Shown here: piece after piece, positions 3,134 to 48,637 of the stretch | Position numbering within the stretch: the stretch's first letter is position 1 | Layout of the letters: the number at the start of each line of letters is the position of its first letter | IMG/VR virus record: IMGVR_UViG_3300003323_001324 | Span: 1 to 64,000 of that record | Strand: one strand, 5' to 3' | DNA length: 64,000 nucleotides | Origin: a virus | The notes under the pieces: generated by a model | The model's database searches: none | What the model was told of the DNA's origin: nothing | Seen by the model: the letters and a program-made list of their open reading frames with translations, nothing else | Program-made: the position numbers and the translations under genes

Positions 3134-3412
3134 ATGAGCAAGCGCGATATCACCGACCTCCGCTATTCCTCGTCGTCGTTCGACGACTTCTTCGCCCCGA
3201 AGGCCGCCCCGGCGCCTTCGGTCAGGTCGGCTTCCTCGGGCCCCGTCCGCCACAGGGTGGCCAACCTCCGTCAGCTCGCCGGGTTCCACCTCGCGGACTC
3301 CGACACCCTCGTCAGGGTCTCCCAGAACGACTTCTGGAAGCTCGGCCAGGACGGCGAGGGCTACTTCATCGAGCGCCTGGTGTCGGACGACGACGGGCCG
3401 GTCAAGGGCTGA
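3134..3412 (+). CDS. Hypothetical head-module protein
   Basis: Typical codon usage, GAGG RBS, position in the operon. Confidence 0.7.
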   Translation: MSKRDITDLRYSSSSFDDFFAPKAAPAPSVRSASSGPVRHRVANLRQLAGFHLADSDTLVRVSQNDFWKLGQDGEGYFIERLVSDDDGPVKG

Positions 3413-3413
3413 C

Positions 3414-4169
3414 ATGACCTCTCTCCAGGGCCAGCCGACCCCGGTCGCCAACTTCGTGGAGCTCGTGGAGCTCTACCGGACCGCGGCCATCGCCCTGGAC
3501 ACGTACTTCTGCAAGGACGAGAAGGGCCGGGATAAGAAGGATCCGGTCTATCAGTACGTCGTCGAGAAGCGCGACATCCCTCCGACGTACGAGCACTACT
3601 CCTCCTGCGGCGACCGCGCCCACGCCCGCCTCTGGCGCCTCGGTTGCCGCCTCCCGTTCGTGAACCGCGAGGAGCGCACTCCCTCCCCCAACGACTGGAA
3701 GCAGGGCTGGAACATCTCCCTACTCCACGACGTGGGGCGCGGCTCTCCCTGCCTGACCAGCACGGGCATGAACGGCCAGCGCTACGCCTGCCCTCCCGGG
3801 GCTGGCTGGAAGCCCGCTCCCGCGACCGAGATGCTCATCTGGAACTCGCCCACCGGCGGCGACGCCCATAGCCTCTCCATCCTCGACTTCGACGGGAAGA
3901 AGGCCAAGACCTTCAACTACGGGGCCGCGGGAATGTCCTCTTCCTCCTTCCCGGGCGCCAAGATATCCGAGGCCCCGCTTACCTGGGACGGCAGGTTCTG
4001 GCGCTACGGCCCTCCCGGCCACGTCCGTATCGTGCAGCGCATCATGACCATCGAGGCGGTCGTGCCGACGCTCACCCTTCTCCCGGACCTGACCTACATC
4101 GACGGCGACATGCTTCCCGGCATGTCCGAGGTCTACGACAGGATCGTCCGGCTCCGGGCGGCCGCTTGA
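3414..4169 (+). CDS. Hypothetical protein, possible Cys/His (NlpC/P60- or CHAP-like) hydrolase
   Basis: YSSCGD at a helix start and a later DAHSLSI; function is inference. Confidence 0.5.
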   Translation: MTSLQGQPTPVANFVELVELYRTAAIALDTYFCKDEKGRDKKDPVYQYVVEKRDIPPTYEHYSSCGDRAHARLWRLGCRLPFVNREERTPSPNDWKQGWNISLLHDVGRGSPCLTSTGMNGQRYACPPGAGWKPAPATEMLIWNSPTGGDAHSLSILDFDGKKAKTFNYGAAGMSSSSFPGAKISEAPLTWDGRFWRYGPPGHVRIVQRIMTIEAVVPTLTLLPDLTYIDGDMLPGMSEVYDRIVRLRAAA

Positions 4170-4209
4170 CCCCGCACCCTCGCTCTTTGATGCCGCCTCC
4201 GGAGGCGAC

Positions 4210-5505
4210 ATGAAGGACCACGATCTTCAGAGTATGGCCGCGCGCGTTGCCGGCGTTGCCGCCAGGGTCCGGACCGCGGGCAAGATCGAGTTCATCCGCG
4301 ACCAGGGCCCCCTTCGCCGCGACATCCGCGTGCAGGGCTTCCGCTGGGACCCCGAGATCCACCGTAACCTCGCCAAGACCCTCTGGGCCGTCGACCGCGC
4401 CCACAGCTACGGGATGGCCGCCCTGCGCCTCTTCTCGAAGATGTCGTCCTCCGACTTTTCTCCGGACGGCCTCCTCGGCGGCGTCGGCTACATCCAGAAG
4501 GTGAAGGACATGCGCTCCGGCCTCTCCCAGGCCGTCGAGGTCCTCTCCGCGTGCGCCGACACCATGCACGACGAGGTCAACGCCGACCACTGGCACTCCG
4601 CGATGGAGGAGGACCCGACCACCAAGGACATCGTCCAGGAGGCCAACGAGGCCAACCCGGAGCAGTACGTCCAGCAGACCTTCCGCGAGGAGGTCCCCTC
4701 CGCGGAGGAGGGCCTCGACGCCTTCAGGAACCCCGAGGCGGACGACTTCAACCCGTTCGTCGAGGGCGAGGAGGACGAGGACGAGGAAGAGGACCAGTGG
4801 TGGAGCACGCCGGACTCCGGCGGGCAGGTGGCCACCGAGGTCCCGCTCCCCGGACCCAAGTCCGCCGTCCCGACGGACGACTCTCTCCAGGAGGAGGGCG
4901 TCTCCCAGGTCGAGATGACCATGAACACGACGGGCGAGGCGCCGCGCGGCAACTACGCCTCCGCCGTCGAGCGCCTGATCGAGCGTGAGCCGCGCCTGGC
5001 GGCCTTCCGCCGCTCGGGCGACGCCGTCCGTATCGCCGACTCGTCCGTGGACCCGGCCACCCTCCCCGGGCCGCGCATCATGCACATCGGCCCCGCGGAG
5101 TCCCCGGAGGCCATGGGTGGCTACACCGACGGCGGGGCCGTCCCGTCGGACGACCCAGCCTACGAGGGCTTCATCGAGCTCGACCGCATCTACCAGGGCC
5201 AGGACTCCAACAACGATGGCGTCACCGGCTACTCCGACCCGACCGACGGCGACGTGACCTCCTTCAAGGCCTCGGCCATGGCCGCCCGCGTGGCGGACGG
5301 GACCTACTCCTGGCTCCCCGGGTCCCGGAACGAGAAGCTGATGCCGTACTACGACCTCTCGGCCACCGACGAGGACGTCCAGTGGATGGCCGCACACGAC
5401 TCCCCCCAGCCTCCGGCGGGGATGGTCCCTCACCCCGTCAAGCCGCGCGAGGACCCCCTATGGGAGGCCGTGAGGAAGAACATTGCCGAGCTCTCTTCCG
5501 ACTGA
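4210..5505 (+). CDS. Acidic putative virion/internal head protein
   Basis: GGAGG RBS; D/E-rich; several RVA/RTA/RIA motifs. Confidence 0.7.
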   Translation: MKDHDLQSMAARVAGVAARVRTAGKIEFIRDQGPLRRDIRVQGFRWDPEIHRNLAKTLWAVDRAHSYGMAALRLFSKMSSSDFSPDGLLGGVGYIQKVKDMRSGLSQAVEVLSACADTMHDEVNADHWHSAMEEDPTTKDIVQEANEANPEQYVQQTFREEVPSAEEGLDAFRNPEADDFNPFVEGEEDEDEEEDQWWSTPDSGGQVATEVPLPGPKSAVPTDDSLQEEGVSQVEMTMNTTGEAPRGNYASAVERLIEREPRLAAFRRSGDAVRIADSSVDPATLPGPRIMHIGPAESPEAMGGYTDGGAVPSDDPAYEGFIELDRIYQGQDSNNDGVTGYSDPTDGDVTSFKASAMAARVADGTYSWLPGSRNEKLMPYYDLSATDEDVQWMAAHDSPQPPAGMVPHPVKPREDPLWEAVRKNIAELSSD

Positions 5506-6664
5506 GGACGCCCTCACGAAGTCCGTGGACACCTTCGGACTCGGAACCTACGACGGGCTCTCCGACGGGTCCCTTCACGGCGAGGACGACGAGCAGCGCG
5601 AGCCCGTCGGCGACTCCCTGCCGACCGAGGTGACCGACGAGTTCGACGTCGAGTACTACCTGAGCTACCCTCAGGAGAAGGCCCTCGGCGGCCCGAAGCA
5701 CGCGTCCCTCGACTGGTTCTTGGCCTCCATCCTTCCCGGGGACGGGGACCGCCCCGCGCGCGCTCCGAAGCCGGCGGAGAAGGTCCTGGACGACCTGGCC
5801 GCCCCTCCCTCCGACGTCCGCACCTCCGAGTCGGAGCTCCCGAGCGACTCCGACAACCCCTCCGCCCGGTCCGACTACTACGACCGCATGACAATGGGGA
5901 AGGTCCTCCGGTCCCTGGACGAGGGACGGTTCTGGCCCTCCGAGGACTCTGGCTCCTACGTCACGCAGGAGCAGAAGGACGTCGAGCCCGCCCCATCCGA
6001 CGACGTGGCCCCCTGGAAGGACGGGGACGGCCACTACGTGGACGACGACGGGGCCATCGAGAGCACGCCTACCCCGGAGTTCAACGACAACGTCATGGAC
6101 AACTCGCTCGGCGCCCTCGGCAACTCCGACTCCGGGTACGTCGTCGAGGACCTGTCGAACCCGCGCGGCTTCCCGAACCAGGACTTCATGGAGGAGGCCG
6201 ACTTTCTCGACGAGAACCCCATCCTCCCCGAGCTCTGGCATCTTCAGCCTTTTGGGTACGCCGCAGAACAGAGGAAAACTATGTCAACCAGGGTGTCAAC
6301 CGACATCGACAAGGTTCGGGACCTGACGAAGGCCTTCCTGAAGGAGCACGGCCGCAAGAGCATTGTGCGCCGCAGCGTCCTGGCCTTCCTCCAGTCCAAG
6401 GGCCTTCCTCAGTACCTCGCGTCGGACGTCATCCGCTGCATGAAGCATGACCATGACATCCTCGTCCCGGACGTCATGGACGCCTTCCCCATCGCCCAGG
6501 ACGCGCCGGACGACCTGCGCCGCCTGGCCTCCATCCACGGCCGCCTTCTCGAGCTCAGCCTCACCGTCCCGGACCGGGAGACGGCCTCGAGGCTCAACCG
6601 CTGTGCCGCCAGCGTCGCCGGGGCCATCATGAAGCTCGAGCGCGCTGCCCTCGGTAACATTTGA
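5483..6664 (+). CDS. Acidic putative head-module protein (start uncertain; possible internal start at 6281)
   Basis: Long ORF with typical codon usage; GAGGAAAACT-ATG at 6281 is in frame. Confidence 0.65.
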   Translation: MPSSLPTEDALTKSVDTFGLGTYDGLSDGSLHGEDDEQREPVGDSLPTEVTDEFDVEYYLSYPQEKALGGPKHASLDWFLASILPGDGDRPARAPKPAEKVLDDLAAPPSDVRTSESELPSDSDNPSARSDYYDRMTMGKVLRSLDEGRFWPSEDSGSYVTQEQKDVEPAPSDDVAPWKDGDGHYVDDDGAIESTPTPEFNDNVMDNSLGALGNSDSGYVVEDLSNPRGFPNQDFMEEADFLDENPILPELWHLQPFGYAAEQRKTMSTRVSTDIDKVRDLTKAFLKEHGRKSIVRRSVLAFLQSKGLPQYLASDVIRCMKHDHDILVPDVMDAFPIAQDAPDDLRRLASIHGRLLELSLTVPDRETASRLNRCAASVAGAIMKLERAALGNI

Positions 6665-6686
6665 TCTTTCATCGCGTGTGAGGACG

Positions 6687-8663
6687 ATGTCCAGCAGGAT
6701 ACCTGACAACTTCGAGTCCGGAATCGGAGACATCACCGAGGTGATGAGCAGCCAGGGCGTGTCCGACCTGTCGTGGCTCAACGTGGACGAGGAGATGTAC
6801 AGGGAGGCCGAGGCTCTTCCGAAGCAGAACCTCGACATCATCCCCGAGCTCCAGTCTGCCCTCTCCTGGGACGGCAAGGACGACCGCGTGCCTGTCGTCA
6901 CCCCGCTGCGCCCGCACGCGGTCGTGAACCGCAACCCGCTGGACAACCCCGAGGCGACCCTCCGCTCGAACTCCTCGGTCCCGAACCGCCTCGCCGCCTA
7001 TGTCATCGCGGGCCTCCCCGACGCGACGATCGCGAGCCGCCTTTCGCTCGAGTTCAGCCCCGCCCAGCTCTCCGCCTCTCACGCCGAGGCCTCCAAGGTC
7101 CTGGACGAGAAGGGGCTGCTCGGGAACGTCTACGTCGACGCCTCCCACTTCCCGCGTTGCGCCCAGGAGGGCCCGCACCGGGAGTTCGTCGCCAAGAGCG
7201 CGAAGCGCGCCCTGTACGTCCTCGCCAAGACCGCCTGCGGCGGGTGCGTCTGCAACAAGTCCGGTACCTGCTCCTCCTTCAAGAAGAGGCTGGTCACCGA
7301 GGTCCCGTACGACCACAAGACCGCCGCGCACTACGTCCCGCAGCTGACCTCGGAGAACCGCATCGCCCCCGGCGAGCTCAAGGCGGCCCTCGCCTCCGGC
7401 CCGTCCGGCGTCAAGGCCCTCCTCCGACAGTCCTTCCTGCGGCCCGTCGCCACCCGCTTCGAGTCCCCGCAGACCATCCAGCAGCGCGCGATCCCGAAGC
7501 CCGCGGAGTTCACCGAGGCCGACGTCCGCTCCTTCTGGGAGCGCCGCATGGCGTCCTCCGACGCCGAGGCGATGCCGGGGACGATGCACCTCCTGGCCGC
7601 CCGCCGCATCATGCAGGGCCGCGCCGACGCCCGCTCCCTCGTGGCGTCCTCCGACGCCGGCCTCCGCGCCCTGGCCCGGGAGAACGGCCTCCTCGGCCAC
7701 ACGTACGTCGACGCCGACGCTCTCGGCGGCGTCCACGAGGCCCTCAAGCACGTGCAGGCCGGGATCAAGTCCGGACGCGGCGCCCCAGACTTCGTCCTCC
7801 TCCGTAACCCGACCCAGGCCGACGCCACCTCCCCGGACATGGCCCAGCTCGTGCAGCTGTCCTCCGTCGTCCGCAAGCGCCCGGAGCTCGGGATCTCGCA
7901 CTTCGCGTCCGCCCTCGAGCGCGCCGTCGCCTCCGGGCGCATCACGCCCGAGATGGCCGCCGCGGCCTCCTCCAAGGTCGCCGCCGCGCCCTTCGCCCCC
8001 GCCGACTGGCCTTCGGCCATCGCCCACGTGAACCTCGCCTCCGCCCCGGCCCCCGAGGCCCGCCAGGTGGACGTCCAGACCACCATCGGGACGACGGTCC
8101 ACCACGGGACCGCGCCGACGGAGACTCCGGTCGCCGTCATGGACCCCGAGGAGGTCCGCCGGACCATCTCGCACCTGATGAACACCGGCTTCTCCGGCCG
8201 GAAGCTCCAGGCCGTCATCCTCCAGAGGTACTCCAGGTCGGACCTCGCCCAGGTCCCGGAGGTCGGCGCCGCCCTGTCCCGGGATGACGGCGTCCAGGGC
8301 CATTACTTCATCGATCCGACCGCCTACAAGGACTACGGGCGCGGCTGCCAGACCGGCGGCGACAAGTTCCGCAAGCTCAACCCCGTCCCGAACGTCCTCG
8401 CGGCCTCCGGGTGCACCGGCTGCCGGAGCCAGACCCGCCCCGGATGGTGCTCGCGCTACGCCAAGACCCTCATCCGCCAGGTTCCCGAGGCTGTCCGGAC
8501 CGAGGCTGCCGAGCGTCGCCGCCTCCCCGTCGTCCGCGAGACCGCCCCGATGACGAACCCCGTCACGGAGTTCGGCCTCACCGCCTCCCTGGAGGTGGAG
8601 ATCGCCGCTCCCCCGAAGGCGAGGCCCGACGTGGTGGTCTCCTCCCAGTCAATCCCGGACTGA
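6687..8663 (+). CDS. Cys-rich virion-module protein with three internal repeats
   Basis: EKGLLGNVYVD, ENGLLGHTYVD and DDGVQGHYFID; CxxC clusters. Confidence 0.75.
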   Translation: MSSRIPDNFESGIGDITEVMSSQGVSDLSWLNVDEEMYREAEALPKQNLDIIPELQSALSWDGKDDRVPVVTPLRPHAVVNRNPLDNPEATLRSNSSVPNRLAAYVIAGLPDATIASRLSLEFSPAQLSASHAEASKVLDEKGLLGNVYVDASHFPRCAQEGPHREFVAKSAKRALYVLAKTACGGCVCNKSGTCSSFKKRLVTEVPYDHKTAAHYVPQLTSENRIAPGELKAALASGPSGVKALLRQSFLRPVATRFESPQTIQQRAIPKPAEFTEADVRSFWERRMASSDAEAMPGTMHLLAARRIMQGRADARSLVASSDAGLRALARENGLLGHTYVDADALGGVHEALKHVQAGIKSGRGAPDFVLLRNPTQADATSPDMAQLVQLSSVVRKRPELGISHFASALERAVASGRITPEMAAAASSKVAAAPFAPADWPSAIAHVNLASAPAPEARQVDVQTTIGTTVHHGTAPTETPVAVMDPEEVRRTISHLMNTGFSGRKLQAVILQRYSRSDLAQVPEVGAALSRDDGVQGHYFIDPTAYKDYGRGCQTGGDKFRKLNPVPNVLAASGCTGCRSQTRPGWCSRYAKTLIRQVPEAVRTEAAERRRLPVVRETAPMTNPVTEFGLTASLEVEIAAPPKARPDVVVSSQSIPD

Positions 8664-8681: not shown

Positions 8682-9326
8682 ATGGATGATGACGGCCCCA
8701 TCGACGGGGACGACGACGATCTCGGCGACGACAGGCCGCCGAAGCCGTCCCGCGGCACCCTGGTGGTCCTGCCCGGCGGGAAGGTCCACGACCCGCGGCC
8801 CGACGTCGGCGCCGACTACGTCGTCGGGCAGTCCAAGGCCAACAATGCCGTGACTCCCGAGGTCCTGGACCCGATGGTCATCGACCGGGCCCTCAAGGAG
8901 CGGGAGGACTTCGTCGAGAAGTCGCGCCTCGTGGAGGCCGTCAAGGACACGAAGAAGGGCGGGAACTTCTCCGTCGTCGAGGACGCCGCCCTCCTGGAGA
9001 TAGCCGAGGAGCTCGCCCACATAAAGTACGAGCGCCGCCGCGCCGCCAAGGACGGGAAGAACACGTCCCCGTTCAGCCTCGGGAGGATAGCGGGGCTGAA
9101 GACCCTCGCCGACCTTCTCCTGAAGCGCCGCGAGGCCGCCCGCGGCGAGCGCATGGACCTGAAGTCCCCGCGCTTCCAGGCCGTCTTCAAGATCTGGATG
9201 GAGTTCTTCTACGAGGCGATGGAGAAGTCCGGGGTTGAGTCCCACATCATCGACCTCGTCTTTCAGCAGATGAAGGCCGACATGGTCAACTGGGAGAGGC
9301 GCATGGACGGCCTCGAGGACACCTGA
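8682..9326 (+). CDS. terS: Probable terminase small subunit
   Basis: Helical 214-aa protein whose stop overlaps the TerL start; call is by position only. Confidence 0.5.
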   Translation: MDDDGPIDGDDDDLGDDRPPKPSRGTLVVLPGGKVHDPRPDVGADYVVGQSKANNAVTPEVLDPMVIDRALKEREDFVEKSRLVEAVKDTKKGGNFSVVEDAALLEIAEELAHIKYERRRAAKDGKNTSPFSLGRIAGLKTLADLLLKRREAARGERMDLKSPRFQAVFKIWMEFFYEAMEKSGVESHIIDLVFQQMKADMVNWERRMDGLEDT

Positions 9327-43302: not shown

Positions 43303-43603
43303 CAGGCACTCCTCCCCCTGCGTGCACGCCCTGGGCTCGGCCTCCTCGCGCCCGACCTTCCTCTACCTCCGGGACGGCTCGAGGGTCGTCATCCGGAGGG
43401 ACGAGGACTCCTGCTGGCTCGAGGTCGTCCCCCAGGCCACCCTGTCCACGGCCTCCCCTTCGCGCGCCTCCAGGCCGTACCTCTTGGGGACGCTGGCCTT
43501 CGGCATGACCGGCGCCGCCGTGGCCGGCTTTTGGGGCCTCCTGGCCGGCGCCGCCATCGGCCTCCTCGTCGCCCACAGGGCCACTCCCTCCGGCTCCCTC
43601 TGA
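43280..43603 (+). CDS. Hypothetical membrane protein (start uncertain)
   Basis: C-terminal Gly-zipper-like TM segments. Confidence 0.5.
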   Translation: MSQRSRSDRHSSPCVHALGSASSRPTFLYLRDGSRVVIRRDEDSCWLEVVPQATLSTASPSRASRPYLLGTLAFGMTGAAVAGFWGLLAGAAIGLLVAHRATPSGSL

Positions 43604-43626
43604 CCCTTTGATGGGCCCGGGCCGGT

Positions 43627-43962
43627 ATGGCGAAGTCGTCGAAGGCTCACGCGGACGGTTCGGTCCCCGCGCAGGACCAGTCCCTGGAGTCTCTCCTGAA
43701 GGCAGAGCTCTCGGAGCTCCACAAGGAGATCGACTCCCTCGTCTCCGGCGGGATGTCGGAGGAGGAGGCCCGGGCCATCCTCGACTGGGCGGCCGCGCTC
43801 GAGGCCCGCGTCAAGCACGTGGCTGCCGTCCTTCGCGACCCGACCCCCGCGACCGTCTCCGCCTACCTCCGCACCGTGGCTGCCGAGATCGGGACCGTGG
43901 GGAGCCGCCGCCACACGACGGCGAGCCTCAGGCTCCTCCAGGCCGCCATCGCCCGCGGCTGA
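43627..43962 (+). CDS. Hypothetical protein, putative late/head protein
   Basis: CCTTTGAT-N14-ATG motif; TPATVSAYLRTVAAEI module. Confidence 0.65.
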   Translation: MAKSSKAHADGSVPAQDQSLESLLKAELSELHKEIDSLVSGGMSEEEARAILDWAAALEARVKHVAAVLRDPTPATVSAYLRTVAAEIGTVGSRRHTTASLRLLQAAIARG

Positions 43963-44505
43963 TCAGCGACGGCGCGCCGTCGTCCGCATTCCTGGCGGCC
44001 TCATCTGCTCGGAAATCTCGTGCCGGAGCATCTCCGCCACCTCGTCGTTCACGTACTCGAGGAGCGGCTGCTTCGACCGCGCGTAGGTCGCTATCTCCTT
44101 CACGACGCTCGACGAGACGAAGGCCACGTCGGGGAGAGTGGGGATGAACACCGTCTGGATGCCGGAGAGCTTCCTGTTGGCGGCAGCGATGGTCATCTCG
44201 GACTCGAAGTCCGACACCATCCGGAGCCCCCGGATGATCACGGCGTCCTCTCGGCCGGCCCACGCCTCCGCGAAGTCCGTCAGCAGCCCTGAGAAGGACG
44301 TGAACCTGAGGTCCTTCGGCTTCCTCGGCCAGTAGCTCCGCGCCGCCTCCAGCCTCTGCTCGGTCTTGAAGAGACCGGCCTTCTTCGAGTTCTTTCCGAC
44401 GGCGATGACGGTCTTCCGCGCGATCCGCCTGGCCGCCTCGGCGATCGCGAAGTGTCCGAAGGTGAACGGGTCGAACGATCCGGCGTAGATGGCCCACCCG
44501 ATCAA
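43963..44505 (-). CDS. coaD: Phosphopantetheine adenylyltransferase
   Basis: AIYAGSFDPFTFGH, N..K..LF, IIRGLR.VSDFESE, VSSSVVKEIA; TTG start overlaps the upstream TGA. Confidence 0.9.
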   Translation of the reverse strand: MIGWAIYAGSFDPFTFGHFAIAEAARRIARKTVIAVGKNSKKAGLFKTEQRLEAARSYWPRKPKDLRFTSFSGLLTDFAEAWAGREDAVIIRGLRMVSDFESEMTIAAANRKLSGIQTVFIPTLPDVAFVSSSVVKEIATYARSKQPLLEYVNDEVAEMLRHEISEQMRPPGMRTTARRR

Positions 44506-44879
44506 TGGACCGTCCCCGGCTGAACGGACCCTGAGACCCCCAGGATGGAGGCGGCCTTCATATACCCTCGGGCGGTCGGCGTGACGATGGCCGGGAGCCC
44601 CTGGTTCTGGAGCGCCGAGCTGACGACGTTGCAGGTCCACTCGACTTCCAGCTCGAAGCACCGGATCTCCCAGTAGTTTTCGGCCCGCTCCATCTGTGCC
44701 TCCGCGCTCTTCTTTCGCGAGCTCTGGAGCAGGCCGGCCAGCTCGGCAGGGCTCTTGCCGCGGCAGGCCTCGAAGCCCTCGACCGAGCCCTTCAGCTTGT
44801 CGGCCTTCCCCTCGTAGTCGCGCCGCGCGGCCTCGATGCCGTCGTCCACGACGCGTGACAGGAACGTCATGTAGTCCAT
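44502..44879 (-). CDS. Hypothetical phage protein
   Basis: GTAGGCT motif 6 nt before ATG. Confidence 0.75.
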   Translation of the reverse strand: MDYMTFLSRVVDDGIEAARRDYEGKADKLKGSVEGFEACRGKSPAELAGLLQSSRKKSAEAQMERAENYWEIRCFELEVEWTCNVVSSALQNQGLPAIVTPTARGYMKAASILGVSGSVQPGTVH

Positions 44880-44922
44880 GGGCCGAGCCTACAGTCCGTA
44901 CGTTCGCGTTTTCGCCTTTTAA

Positions 44923-44967
44923 TTAACGTATGAAGTACGTAACGTTTTGACGTTCCAAATACGTAAT
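44923..44967. promoter_or_regulatory. Two tandem NrtR-type operator boxes (GT-N7-AC)
   Basis: ttaacGTatgaagtACgtaac (44923-43) and ttgacGTtccaaatACgtaat (44947-67) in an AT-rich gap directly upstream of nrtR. Confidence 0.7.
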
Positions 44968-44987
44968 TCGGAGTGTAAGATCCCGAC

Positions 44988-45806
44988 ATGGCTAAGCCGA
45001 TCCCCAACGACCCGCCTCCCGTCTTCTTAGTCAAGGACTGCGAGAAGGTCCCTCCCGGATATCCGGGCTACTACGTCAACGAGGTCCCGCACTACGTCTA
45101 CCGCTACAGGCGCGCTGCCCTCACGGTCGACGCCGTCGTCTTCGGGGTCGACCGGGACGGCCTGAAGATCCTCCTCATCAAGCGCAAGGAGGCCGACCCG
45201 TCCGTCCCGAAGGAGGAGCAGGCCTACCCCGGGCACTGGGCACTGCCGGGCGGTTTCGTGGACGTCGGCGAGAGCCTGGACGACGCCGTGAAGCGCGAGC
45301 TCCGGGAGGAGACGGGCATGACGGACGTCTACCTCGAGCAGCTCTACACGTTCGGCGACCCCGGCCGCGACCCGCGCGAGCACGTCGTCGACGTCTCCTA
45401 CCTCGCCCTCGTGAGGCCGGACAAGCACCCTGTCTCGGCCGACTCGGACGCCTCCGACGTCCGCTGGTTCCCGGTCTCCGCCCTGCCCGACAAGATGGCG
45501 TTCGACCATCGGAAGATCTTCGACGTCGGATTCCGGCGCCTGCAGGCGAAGGTCCGCTACGCGCCCATCGGCTTCGAGCTCCTCCCCGAGGCCTTCACGA
45601 TCGGCGAGCTCCAGCGCATCTACGAGGACGTCCTCCAGCGCGAGCTCGACAGCCGCAATTTCCGCAAGAGGATCCTCCTGACCGGGCTTCTCCAGGACAC
45701 CGGCAGGAAGAAGGCCTCGGGCTCGGGGCCGAAGGCCTCGCTCTACCGCTTCAACAAGGACGAGTACGAGAGGCAGACGCGCCTCGGCATCAATTTCGAG
45801 ATCTGA
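44988..45806 (+). CDS. nrtR: NrtR-family Nudix + wHTH regulator
   Basis: WALPGGF..RELREETG, LEQLYTFG.P.RDPR, AFDH, LLPEAFT..ELQ..YE, RNFRKRI, A.LYRF. Confidence 0.9.
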   Translation: MAKPIPNDPPPVFLVKDCEKVPPGYPGYYVNEVPHYVYRYRRAALTVDAVVFGVDRDGLKILLIKRKEADPSVPKEEQAYPGHWALPGGFVDVGESLDDAVKRELREETGMTDVYLEQLYTFGDPGRDPREHVVDVSYLALVRPDKHPVSADSDASDVRWFPVSALPDKMAFDHRKIFDVGFRRLQAKVRYAPIGFELLPEAFTIGELQRIYEDVLQRELDSRNFRKRILLTGLLQDTGRKKASGSGPKASLYRFNKDEYERQTRLGINFEI

Positions 45807-45817
45807 AAGGAAAGACC

Positions 45818-47230
45818 ATGAAGACCGACTCTGTTCTCCGCATGCACCGACTCGTCGGGAACATCCTCGACACCGACAGTTACAAGTTCAGCCACTGGCT
45901 CCAGGACCCTCCCGGGACCACAAACTCGGGTTTCTACCTCTCCTCGAGGGGCGGGAAGTTCGCGAACACGATCTTCTTCGGCCTTCAGCGCTTCTGCAAG
46001 GAGGAGCTGGCGGAGCCTGTCACCCTCGAGCAGATCGACTATGCCTCGGCGAACCTGCCGAAGCATGGGACGCCCTTCAACCGCGAGGGGTGGCTCCGCG
46101 TCCTGGAGAAGCACCGCGGCTACCTCCCTATCCGCATCCGCGCCGTGAGGGAGGGGACCGTCGTCCCCTCCGGGAACGTCCTCCTCGACGTCCGTTCCAC
46201 CGACCCTGATCTCCCCTGGGTCTCTGGCTACGTCGAGACCCAGATGGTCCGCGGCTGGGCGCCGATCACCATCTCCACGAAGAGCTATTACGGCAAGAAG
46301 ATCATCTTCAAGCACCTCCTGAGGTCCTCGGACGACCCGCTCGGGGAGCTCCCCTTCAAGCTCCACGACTTCGGCGGCCGCGGCGTCACGAGCCGCCAGC
46401 ACGCCGGCATTGGCGGCATGGCCCACCTCGTCAACTTCATGGGGACGGACACGTACATGGGCGTCCTCTATGCAGAGGGCTACTACGGGGAGCCCATGGC
46501 CGGCTTCAGCGTCCCGGCCGCCGAGCACTCGACTGCCTGCAAGTGGGGCAAGGCCCGCCATGGCGAGTTCTATCGCCACATGTTCAAGGCGTTCGGGAAG
46601 AAGGGGTGCGTCTGGGCCTGCGTCTCGGACACCTACGACTACTACGACACGGTCGAGAACGAGTGGGGCGGCTCCCTCGGCCGCGAGATCGCCGAGAGCG
46701 GCTCGACCGTGGTCTGCCGCCCTGACTCCGGCGTCCCCGTCGACGTCGTCCTCAAGACCCTCGAGATCCTGGACCGGAAGGTCGGGACCGTGAAGAACAA
46801 GAAGGGCTACAAGGTCCTCCCGCCCTGGATCCGCATCATCCAGGGCGACGGGGTTGGCCTCGACCCTATCGACGAGATCTACGAGGCCATCGAGGCCCGC
46901 GGGTTCTCCTCGACGAACGTCGGGTTCGGGATGGGCGGCGAGCTCCAGCAGAAGGGCATCGACCGCGACACCAACAAGTTCGCCTACAAGTGCTGGGACG
47001 CGACCATCGACGGCGAGGTCCACGAGATCTTCAAGGACCCGGCCACCGACCCCGGGAAGCGAAGCCTCGCCGGGCAGCACTCTCTCATCCTCGAGCGCGG
47101 CCAACTCAGCACCGTGAAGGGCGAGCTCCCCGGCAACCTCCTGGAGCCCGTGTGGGACACCGGGGACGTCCTCCGCGACCAGAGCTTCTCCGAGGTCCGC
47201 AAGTTGGCCGGCGCGGAGTTTACCCTCTGA
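45818..47230 (+). CDS. nadV: Nicotinamide phosphoribosyltransferase (NAMPT family)
   Basis: DTDSYKFSH, HDFGGRG, PAAEHS, SDTYD, RPDSG, IQGDG, FGMGG, RDT..FAYK. Confidence 0.9.
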   Translation: MKTDSVLRMHRLVGNILDTDSYKFSHWLQDPPGTTNSGFYLSSRGGKFANTIFFGLQRFCKEELAEPVTLEQIDYASANLPKHGTPFNREGWLRVLEKHRGYLPIRIRAVREGTVVPSGNVLLDVRSTDPDLPWVSGYVETQMVRGWAPITISTKSYYGKKIIFKHLLRSSDDPLGELPFKLHDFGGRGVTSRQHAGIGGMAHLVNFMGTDTYMGVLYAEGYYGEPMAGFSVPAAEHSTACKWGKARHGEFYRHMFKAFGKKGCVWACVSDTYDYYDTVENEWGGSLGREIAESGSTVVCRPDSGVPVDVVLKTLEILDRKVGTVKNKKGYKVLPPWIRIIQGDGVGLDPIDEIYEAIEARGFSSTNVGFGMGGELQQKGIDRDTNKFAYKCWDATIDGEVHEIFKDPATDPGKRSLAGQHSLILERGQLSTVKGELPGNLLEPVWDTGDVLRDQSFSEVRKLAGAEFTL

Positions 47231-47231
47231 C

Positions 47232-48365
47232 ATGTTCCCTCACGCCCCGATGTTCCGGTCCGCCGGAGTAAGCATTCACGTCATCTGCGCCGGAGCGGGC
47301 GCCGGCCTGCAGAAGCGCCTCTGGGAGGTCCCCGGGTCCTCGGACTACCTGTCCGGGGCCTCCCTTCCCTACCGGGCGAAGGAGACGAACCGGACCCTCG
47401 GCTTCGTCCCCGGGAGCTACGTCTCCCAGGCCACGGCCGTCGACTTCGCCTGCGTCGCGTACGGCCGAGCCTACGACTTCGGGGAGAAGAGGCCGATCGG
47501 CCTCGGCCTCACCGCCTCGGTCGCCAGCGAGCACGAGCACCGGGGCGACCACCGCATCCACGCCTGCGTCATCTCCGACGAGAAGGTCATCGTCGTGAAC
47601 ATGACGCTGGCAAAGGGGGTCGGGTTCGATGCGAGGGAGGCGGACGGGGAGATCGCCGACGCCCTGGGCCTCTCCCTCCTCTGCGCCGTCATCGACCCCG
47701 GGTGGCACGACGCGATGGTGAAGATCGGGGTCGGCGACGAGACCGAGTACTCGGTGCAGATGGAGGACGGGACATCCTACGCCCTGGAGAGATTCTACGA
47801 GCGCCCCTTCTTCGGGACGAACGGGTCCCGCTCCTCAACCCTCCCGGAGAAAGGGTGCGTCCTCTATCCCGGCTCCTACAACCCTCCCCATCCCGGCCAC
47901 CACGAGGTCGCGAGGGCGGTCGAGCTCGCCTCCGGCAAGCCCGTCGTCTTCCACGTCACCGCGGACGGCCCCCACAAGGCCCCGCTCGGCCTCCAGGACC
48001 TGCTGAAGCGCGCCCGGGGCCTGAGGGGGCACGACCGGTTTTTCACCCGGGGCGACGCCCTCTACGTCGACAAGGCCCGCCGTTTCCCGGGGACCCCCAT
48101 CGCCATGGGGGCCGACGCCATGGCGAACATGCTGGACCCGAAGTGGGGCCCCTCGGTCATGCCCATCCTCTACGAGATGGCGCAGCTCGGGACGCGCTTC
48201 TACGTCTCGGACCGGCCGGTCGCGGGCGAGCTTCTGACGATGCAGAAGGTCCTCGAGAGGTCCGGGGTCTCCGACGTCGACCTCGTCCACCAGCTGTTCG
48301 TCCGCGTCGAGGGGAACTGGGACTTCTCCTCCACCCGGGAGCGCGCCTTGGTCTCCCGGACGTAA
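47232..48365 (+). CDS. CinA-like domain fused to an HxGH nucleotidyltransferase (probable NMN adenylyltransferase)
   Basis: VPGSS..L..A..PY at the N-terminus; YPGSYNPPHPGH, MGAD, SST. Confidence 0.78.
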   Translation: MFPHAPMFRSAGVSIHVICAGAGAGLQKRLWEVPGSSDYLSGASLPYRAKETNRTLGFVPGSYVSQATAVDFACVAYGRAYDFGEKRPIGLGLTASVASEHEHRGDHRIHACVISDEKVIVVNMTLAKGVGFDAREADGEIADALGLSLLCAVIDPGWHDAMVKIGVGDETEYSVQMEDGTSYALERFYERPFFGTNGSRSSTLPEKGCVLYPGSYNPPHPGHHEVARAVELASGKPVVFHVTADGPHKAPLGLQDLLKRARGLRGHDRFFTRGDALYVDKARRFPGTPIAMGADAMANMLDPKWGPSVMPILYEMAQLGTRFYVSDRPVAGELLTMQKVLERSGVSDVDLVHQLFVRVEGNWDFSSTRERALVSRT

Positions 48366-48377
48366 TCTCCCGCCGCG

Positions 48378-48593
48378 ATGGCGACGGAGAGGATCGGAGA
48401 CTGGGTGTGCACCGACGAGAATGGCTTCAGGGCCGCCTACTGCATGCGCGGTCCTGAGGCCATGAGCGTCAGCTACGACGTCAGGGACCCCCACCTCCTC
48501 GCCTACGGCCGGATCCCGCGGGAGGTCGTCCTCTGGATGATCAGGGACCCCGAGCCGGCCAAGGAGCCTTTGGTCGAGCCGGCCCCGGGCTGA
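48378..48593 (+). CDS. Hypothetical protein
   Basis: GTAATCT motif upstream. Confidence 0.6.
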   Translation: MATERIGDWVCTDENGFRAAYCMRGPEAMSVSYDVRDPHLLAYGRIPREVVLWMIRDPEPAKEPLVEPAPG

Positions 48594-48637
48594 CCATGTC
48601 CTGCAGAGGCCTCGGATGTAGGGGAGCCGGAGAACAG

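Follow-up and report, generated by a model that had tools for sequence, protein, structure and literature searches.

Positions 1 to 64,000 of the IMG/VR record IMGVR_UViG_3300003323_001324, a single record of 157,577 bases whose first 64 kb are called the window here, carry an NAD+ salvage operon composed of a regulator gene (nrtR), a nicotinamide phosphoribosyltransferase gene (nadV) and a gene encoding a fusion of a PncC-fold and a NadD-fold domain (gene 3). This operon of a huge uncultured phage is read here, with a probability of about 0.6, as an autoregulated variant of the NAD+ reconstitution pathway 2 (NARP2) that would be derepressed by ADP-ribose and through which the phage probably makes NAD+ on demand.

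NARP2 couples a nicotinamide phosphoribosyltransferase (Nampt) to a nicotinamide mononucleotide (NMN) adenylyltransferase (NMNAT), as in NadV and NatV of Vibrio phage KVP40, and overcomes the NAD-depleting defences Thoeris, DSR and SIR2-HerA (Osterman et al., 10.1101/2024.02.11.579819). As described, the pathway runs regardless of need: in KVP40 it generates excess NAD+ even without a defence system, drains phosphoribosyl pyrophosphate (PRPP) and is toxic when cloned in E. coli (10.1101/2024.02.11.579819). If the present reading is true, an NrtR carried by the phage and acting on a NARP2 promoter would place the pathway under demand control, and the virus would be using a product of host immunity as the cue for its counter-measure. 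Both NARP2 and the NAD salvage clusters of large phages have been described before (PMC7824862, PMC11662467, 10.1101/2024.02.11.579819, PMC13464706); no description of a phage-encoded NrtR, of a regulated NARP pathway or of an inducible counter-defence acting through a defence product was found in the literature search.

The regulator, its predicted operators and the promoter

The three genes are located on the plus strand at 44988-45806 (nrtR), 45818-47230 (nadV) and 47232-48365 (gene 3, 377 residues). Their contiguity, proposed in an earlier reading of this DNA from its letters (the sequence-only reading), is borne out by intergenic gaps of 11 nt and 1 nt, respectively, and the domain scores confirm the gene content given there. 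The nrtR-nadV gap contains AAGGAAAG as the ribosome-binding site for nadV, and no plus-strand terminator was found inside the operon. The next gene, at 48378, carries its own -10-like element, which overlaps the stop codon of gene 3; hence, the operon most likely comprises three genes.

The NrtR protein consists of an N-terminal Nudix domain (PF00293, 85 bits, residues 47-178) and a complete C-terminal NrtR winged helix (NrtR_WHD, PF21906, 82 bits, profile positions 1-61 of 61). Residues 40-258 align with the Shewanella NrtR 3GZ5 (116 bits), and residues 44-264 align with the Bacteroides AraR 5BS6 (138 bits). By these scores, the protein belongs to the NrtR family but not to the NCBIfam equivalog NF050029, against which it reaches 158 bits at a cut-off of 400. 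The Nudix box, in which the sequence-only reading had recognised REL.EE, is complete (GX5EX7REUXEEXGU) and reads GFVDVGESLDDAVKRELREETGM. The core RExxEE is kept in all the phage NrtRs examined, namely those of the related loci L001, L008, L009 and L010, of the 636-kb GenBank phage LR756504 and of gp273 of Bacillus phage G. The labels L001-L037 denote the related loci that were compared, mostly IMG/VR contigs, and L128 denotes Bacillus phage G; the IMG/VR loci were found by a profile scan, as a single-protein scan of IMG/VR gave none.

In this respect, the window NrtR resembles Synechocystis Slr1690, which also has the full catalytic box, and differs from the So, Ms and Ss NrtRs; the Mycobacterium, Streptococcus and Shewanella proteins have degenerate Nudix boxes and no activity (PMC6800001, PMC2330246). 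NrtR is, furthermore, the only Nudix gene in the 157.6-kb record. The intact box suggests that the protein may also hydrolyse ADP-ribose, which makes it a possibly active ADP-ribose pyrophosphatase and one of two testable proteins of the operon. The neighbour of nadV in most of the IMG/VR loci, and in the common phage arrangement, is an NMNAT-Nudix fusion; in the window, the Nudix function may have moved onto the regulator.

Published NrtR operators are 21-bp palindromes with a GT-N7-AC core, situated before the target genes (PMC2330246). Two sequences of this kind, each of 21 bp and neither assigned a strand, stand in tandem before nrtR and are the predicted binding sites: box 1 (TTAACGTATGAAGTACGTAAC, TTAACGT-N7-ACGTAAC) at 44923-44943 and box 2 (TTGACGTTCCAAATACGTAAT, TTGACGT-N7-ACGTAAT) at 44947-44967. 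Their centres are 24 bp apart, and the two are 75% alike over 20 nt. Simple palindrome scoring fails to single out the boxes in so GC-rich a genome, and they were judged by how rare the extended pattern is in the record and by local shuffling. The pattern T.ACGT-N7-ACGT.A occurs at 2 sites in the 157,577 bases, with 0 expected, and both are the nrtR boxes; simultaneously, at least two ACGT-N7-ACGT sites appear in just 0.025% of dinucleotide-preserving shuffles of the 108-nt intergenic gap alone. This gap has a G+C content of 46%, falling to 35% in its 74-nt core, against 68% for the genome. The tandem GT-N7-AC boxes of an NrtR-family regulator at its own promoter, and the AT-rich gap that holds them, were claims of the sequence-only reading, and both stand.

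The same reading had taken GTAAGAT (44975-44981, plus strand), 6 nt before the ATG at 44988, as the -10 element of the operon promoter, and a genome-wide test places it in a larger set. Across 145 predicted starts, the preceding 30 nt contain GTAnnnT 36 times against 1.8 expected (20-fold), and 22 of the 36 sites lie 5-6 nt before the start codon. Further examples in the window are at 8682, 17817, 34170, 38885 and 51354. The pattern suggests widespread leaderless transcription in this phage from a promoter type with a -10 element alone; with GTAAGAT 6 nt before its ATG, nrtR, the first cistron, would therefore be leaderless. On numbering from the A of each ATG (+1), box 2 reaches from -41 to -21 in the nrtR promoter (centre -31), so repression of the operon is geometrically plausible. 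The centre of box 1 lies at -55 from the nrtR start and at -54 from the start of the divergent leftward unit, which is the midpoint between both starts.

Similar arrangements exist in bacteria. The Shewanella oneidensis nrtR-prs-nadV locus has tandem NrtR sites that are bound by the regulator (Rodionov et al. 2008, PMC2330246), and in Synechocystis the NrtR Slr1690 accompanies nadM-nadV and combines the regulator and enzyme roles (PMC2330246). The window shares with bacterial NrtR regulons the Nudix domain joined to a winged helix, the tandem 21-bp GT-N7-AC boxes before a nadV operon and the linkage of nrtR to its target. The differences are the ACGT-type flanks of the boxes, another partner enzyme, and a regulator encoded by a lytic-type huge phage, which is consequently absent at entry.

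The NadV enzyme and the PncC-fold/NadD-fold fusion

The window NadV contains NAMPT_N and NAPRTase domains and scores 511 bits against NF006629, over the cut-off of 405. It shares 41.6% identity with the KVP40 Nampt and 31.8% with the Namat of Bacillus phage FADO, which is experimentally defined. A maximum-likelihood tree of 14 homologues splits with 100/100 support into a Prs-partnered group, including the FADO Namat, and an NMNAT-partnered group, including the KVP40 Nampt, and the window NadV is situated in the latter. Within this clade, the NadVs that travel with gene-3 homologues group together (91/96 support). No PF13793 match, as expected of a Prs-like gene, was found in the 157.6-kb record, itself a fragment, and the related loci that carry the nrtR-nadV-gene 3 trio contain no match to Adps. 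NARP1 was rejected, with no Prs partner found in this fragment and NadV in the other clade, and the clade placement bears out the claim that NadV is a Nampt of the NARP2 type. A putative adenylyltransferase gene adjoins nadV, as in NARP2.

Gene 3 is annotated from structure matches and motifs. Its family numbers at least 345 proteins, about 365 residues long and encoded mostly on large phage-like contigs; the closest relatives (P0005 and others) share 60-70% identity with the window protein and lie on contigs of 125-296 kb. Pfam gives a weak cytidylyltransferase-like match (CTP_transf_like). The AlphaFold model, built from 33 family members, has a mean predicted local distance difference test score of 86.5 and consists of two domains. 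Residues 205-377 superpose on nicotinate mononucleotide (NaMN)/NMN adenylyltransferases with Z scores of 11-12, and Foldseek matches NadD at E 1e-5. The NadD motifs GxYNPPHxGH, PHK and SSTxxR are invariant in the family, with HPGH at 220-223 and SSTRER at 366-371. The domain thereby resembles the bacterial NadDs of B. subtilis (1KAM/1KAQ) and B. anthracis (3E27) in the fold and in the GxFxPxHxGH, PPHK and ISSTxxR motifs; it differs from them in an identity of only 16-23% and in its fusion to a PncC-like domain. For the second element of NARP2, an NMN adenylyltransferase in the same phage, the candidate is this NadD-fold domain with its catalytic motifs, in an architecture unlike that of NatV.

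The N-terminal residues 1-155 superpose on PncC/CinA NMN deamidases, closest to A. tumefaciens CinA 2A9S (Z 15.4, root-mean-square deviation 2.4 Å over 143 residues), followed by 4CT8 (Z 14.6) and 6L19 (Z 14.5). In A. tumefaciens CinA, S31 and K63 are needed for catalysis, and S48, Y58 and R145 bind the phosphate (PMC5384747). The counterparts of the three phosphate binders, S37, Y47 and R135, are invariant in the gene 3 family. The catalytic S31 aligns to position 20, an Ala in the window protein and Thr or Ser in its relatives, and K63 aligns to position 52, which is Thr, Gln or His across the 33 members; the alignments at this dyad are weak (E 0.16; hhalign probability 23%) but consistent with the distances to the conserved PGSS and Tyr. 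Gene 3 thus shares with CinA (PMC5384747) the fold and the phosphate-binding residues without the catalytic dyad. With the Ser/Lys dyad missing and the phosphate binders kept, the PncC-like domain probably binds a mononucleotide but is no canonical deamidase. In addition, H16, H103, H107, K128 and D138 are invariant residues specific to this family. The sequence-only reading had described gene 3 as a CinA-like/HxGH nucleotidyltransferase; the NadD fold with HxGH stands, the likeness to CinA holds for the fold only, and the NMN deamidase dyad is missing.

A deamidating route through PncC and NadD, from NMN to NaMN and on to nicotinate adenine dinucleotide, was rejected, as the dyad is missing and no NAD synthase (NadE) gene was found in the 157.6-kb record. 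No description of a PncC-fold/NadD-fold fusion was found in the literature search, and among the matches listed for the gene-3 profile in cellular genomes (species representatives) there are only distant or partial relatives, none exceeding 25% identity across most of the length. This widespread fusion is the second testable protein of the operon. In the ESM Atlas, free-standing proteins of about 190 residues, many of them from Chloroflexota, match gene 3 residues 1-200 (47232-47830) with scores of 0.86-0.88 and template modelling scores of 0.80-0.81; PF02464 occurs in only 17% of one such cluster, a lead to a distinct CinA-fold subfamily.

Compared with NARP2, in which a NadM-type NMNAT is fused to Nudix, the window combines a NadD-fold adenylyltransferase with a PncC-like domain and carries its Nudix domain on a DNA-binding regulator. 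It also possesses predicted operators, while no regulation has been described for NARP2.

The proposed circuit and its alternatives

In the proposed circuit, a leaderless operon mRNA would start from the GTAAGAT-type promoter, and the operon's own NrtR would bind the two tandem 21-bp GT-N7-AC operators; box 2, over the -35/spacer region, would allow NrtR to repress its own operon. ADP-ribose, a cleavage product of NAD+, would release NrtR. NadV would then convert nicotinamide and PRPP to NMN, and the NadD-like domain of gene 3 would adenylylate NMN to NAD+. Hydrolysis of ADP-ribose by NrtR could also set the switch back, with ribose 5-phosphate and AMP returned as products. Since the phage-encoded NrtR is absent at entry, the operon would be expressed first and throttled later, that is, it would fire once and then be held down unless ADP-ribose persists. 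The net effect would be NAD+ rebuilding matched to NAD+ breakdown, which fits a counter-defence against NADase systems and a limit on the PRPP cost of NARP2. The sequence-only reading had the phage detect the defence product and then switch the operon on. The genes and operator-like boxes for such a circuit are present; switching on only after detection does not survive the absence of the phage-encoded repressor at entry, and an autoregulated brake with proposed release by ADP-ribose takes its place.

NrtR leaves DNA on ADP-ribose (PMC2330246, PMC6800001), and ADP-ribose is adopted here as the candidate effector from that family precedent only. In C. glutamicum, the DNA binding of NdnR is improved by NAD+ (PMC6800001). 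Either ADP-ribose as an inducer or NAD+ as a co-repressor would give induction on NAD+ loss. A more elaborate version is put forward tentatively, with the odds somewhat against it: a bifunctional NrtR would both detect and degrade the ADP-ribose released by NADases, a NARP2-like pathway would be on only while NAD+ is being destroyed, and a phage-typical fusion would act as the final enzyme, its N-terminal domain having a new non-deamidase role such as NMN capture or channelling.

Several points weigh against the preferred reading. NadD enzymes often favour NaMN, and gene 3 reaches only 16 bits against the NadD equivalog TIGR00482, whose cut-off is 112. The best-scoring solved relative of the regulator is AraR, an arabinose-sensing member of the NrtR family; as AraR responds to arabinose and NdnR to NAD+, family membership does not fix the effector. 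Neither box is a perfect palindrome, each half-site matching at 5 of 7 positions, and a strict sigma-70 promoter scan found no classical promoter. An ACGT-type tandem operator was found beside nrtR in no other IMG/VR contig; the search of IMG/VR for the tandem pattern returned 18 loci, every one an unrelated repeat lacking a neighbouring nrtR or nadV. In the sister locus L001, the upstream region differs, with a GT-N6-AC-like site and an inserted open reading frame (ORF). With the record only about 37% complete, genes absent from it prove little.

The same circuit could serve another purpose, a self-limiting supply of NAD+ for phage metabolism in which NrtR only caps the PRPP cost and ADP-ribose reflects ordinary NAD+ turnover. 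This explanation is unlikely, though the likeliest of the alternatives: bacterial NrtR regulons are homeostatic (PMC2330246, PMC6800001), NAD synthesis clusters are widespread in jumbo phages (PMC7824862, PMC11662467), KVP40 NARP2 raises NAD+ with no defence system present (10.1101/2024.02.11.579819), and in phage G the NrtR-like gene heads a pncA/pncB/nadD-type cluster. Counter-defence is favoured over it by the ability of NARP2 to overcome Thoeris, DSR and SIR2-HerA and by the scarcity of ADP-ribose in uninfected cells (10.1101/2024.02.11.579819); moreover, the 157 kb of the record, which is a fragment, yielded neither an NAD-dependent ligase gene nor a macro-domain gene. With rather lower probability, NrtR is mainly an enzyme, the ADP-ribose pyrophosphatase partner that classical NARP2 fuses to its NMNAT, and its winged helix serves simple autoregulation or uses NAD+ as a co-repressor. 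The complete Nudix box in every phage NrtR examined, set against the degenerate and inactive characterised bacterial NrtRs (PMC6800001), the lack of a second Nudix gene in the record, the NMNAT-Nudix fusions beside nadV in most IMG/VR loci and the response of NdnR to NAD+ (PMC6800001) all point in this direction. The winged helix, however, is full length and well conserved, and predicted operators accompany it; as Synechocystis NrtR combines both roles (PMC2330246), an enzymatic function would supplement the proposed ADP-ribose-controlled circuit rather than replace it.

It is very improbable that the boxes are not NrtR operators at all and arose by chance, as sites of another factor or as promoter elements, in which case the operon would be a constitutive early gene set. 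Imperfect palindromes in an AT-rich gap with six copies of ACGT, and the failure to find the same box type beside nrtR elsewhere in the IMG/VR search, would agree with such a view. However, the two sites have no further copy in the genome, sit precisely at the nrtR promoter, have the 21-bp length with the GT-N7-AC core and are arranged in tandem as in Shewanella (PMC2330246), and nrtR is preceded by comparable boxes in unrelated phage contigs.

Recurrence in other phages and the surrounding genes

The module recurs in other large phages. In at least eight IMG/VR phage contigs, nadV is the next gene after nrtR, namely in the window, L001, L008 (=L034), L009 (=L037), L010, L028, L033 and L035, and in LR756504 nadV lies 2.6 kb downstream of nrtR. 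The trio with gene 3 is present in the window, L001, L008, L009 and L010; in L008, about 3.7 kb of other genes (3354-7000) separate nadV from the gene-3 homologue. Among 50,697 GenBank phage records, only four match at least 80% of NrtR, and about 2,000 have a NadV homologue. Candidate GT-N7-AC operators, with flanks unlike those of the window, precede nrtR in L009 (TTTGTGT-N7-ACACTAA with neighbouring boxes), in L030-32 (two boxes) and in the 448-kb phage contig L010. The last contains four overlapping copies of CCATGGT-N7-ACCATGG in 15-bp steps at 4748-4813, directly before nrtR, an array unusually dense for operators.

In the cultured Bacillus phage G (L128, 4950-10669), gp273 is an NrtR-like protein with a Nudix domain and a winged helix, and its gene heads a run comprising an isochorismatase-type hydrolase, a nicotinate phosphoribosyltransferase, KptA and a NadD-type gene. 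The sequence before gp273 showed no clear GT-N7-AC box. Such a cultured phage, with an NrtR-like gene heading a salvage cluster, could serve as a laboratory model.

The record has a G+C content of 68% and is classed as linear by IMG/VR, with a CheckV completeness of about 37%. Genes for the terminase, the portal and the prohead protease are located upstream of the operon in the window. The nearest relative of the terminase is that of LR745208, a 485-kb uncultured phage (38.7% identity), and the runner-up belongs to a 308-kb Tunturiibacter phage. These features mark the record as part of the genome of a very large phage from soil or roots. Among public sequencing runs, a root metagenome contains exact pieces of the region, and one soil metatranscriptome library contains contigs spanning 47169-48600 at about 98% identity and, over nrtR and nadV, only short pieces compatible with conserved motifs; contigs from an RNA library are not proof of transcription, so no conclusion on expression is drawn. 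A megablast search of the region against GenBank phages gave no match.

The divergent unit on the minus strand begins with a 125-residue gene (44502-44879; G+C at third codon positions 0.90), which has no match in Pfam, NCBIfam or PHROG and shares 59% identity with a protein of the syntenic contig L001. Its leaderless promoter carries the -10-like element GTAGGCT (44886-44892, minus strand), 6 nt before the start at 44879. The second gene encodes a coaD-like phosphopantetheine adenylyltransferase (43963-44505, minus strand) that scores over the equivalog cut-off (TIGR01510, 121 bits against 103; PF01467, 59 bits), and its start codon, the TTG at 44505, shares bases with the stop codon of the 125-residue gene (TTGA). 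A divergent coaD unit sharing the control region had been suggested in the sequence-only reading; the unit exists with coaD as its second gene, behind the 125-residue gene, and sharing is possible but weak, with box 1 at -54 of the leftward promoter. An effect of NrtR on the 125-residue gene and then, via TTGA, on coaD is possible and is not indicated.

A coaD-type gene is found no more than a few kb from nadV in the window, in the IMG/VR loci L001 (3040-3531), L010 (12143-12601) and L035 (1154-1699) and in Myxococcus phage Mx1 (L014, 1750-2259), where the gene adjoins a second cytidylyltransferase. A gene for a CoA-pathway enzyme thus accompanies NAD salvage repeatedly in phages.

L001 is syntenic with the window over a stretch that reaches from a phrog_2426 gene, includes coaD and runs on into genes past the operon. 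Between the 125-residue gene and nrtR, L001 contains an ORF of lower G+C content (4166-4549, minus strand) with a weak GIY-YIG match of 20.4 bits, under the cut-off, and only about 30 nt remain between this ORF and nrtR. This match makes the ORF a possible homing endonuclease gene that has invaded the control region. Beyond coaD in the window, a 111-residue ORF on the plus strand (43627-43962) shares 52% identity with its counterpart in L001, and a 183-residue ORF on the minus strand (43363-43914) overlaps it; since the overlapping plus-strand ORF is conserved in L001, the minus-strand ORF is probably spurious.

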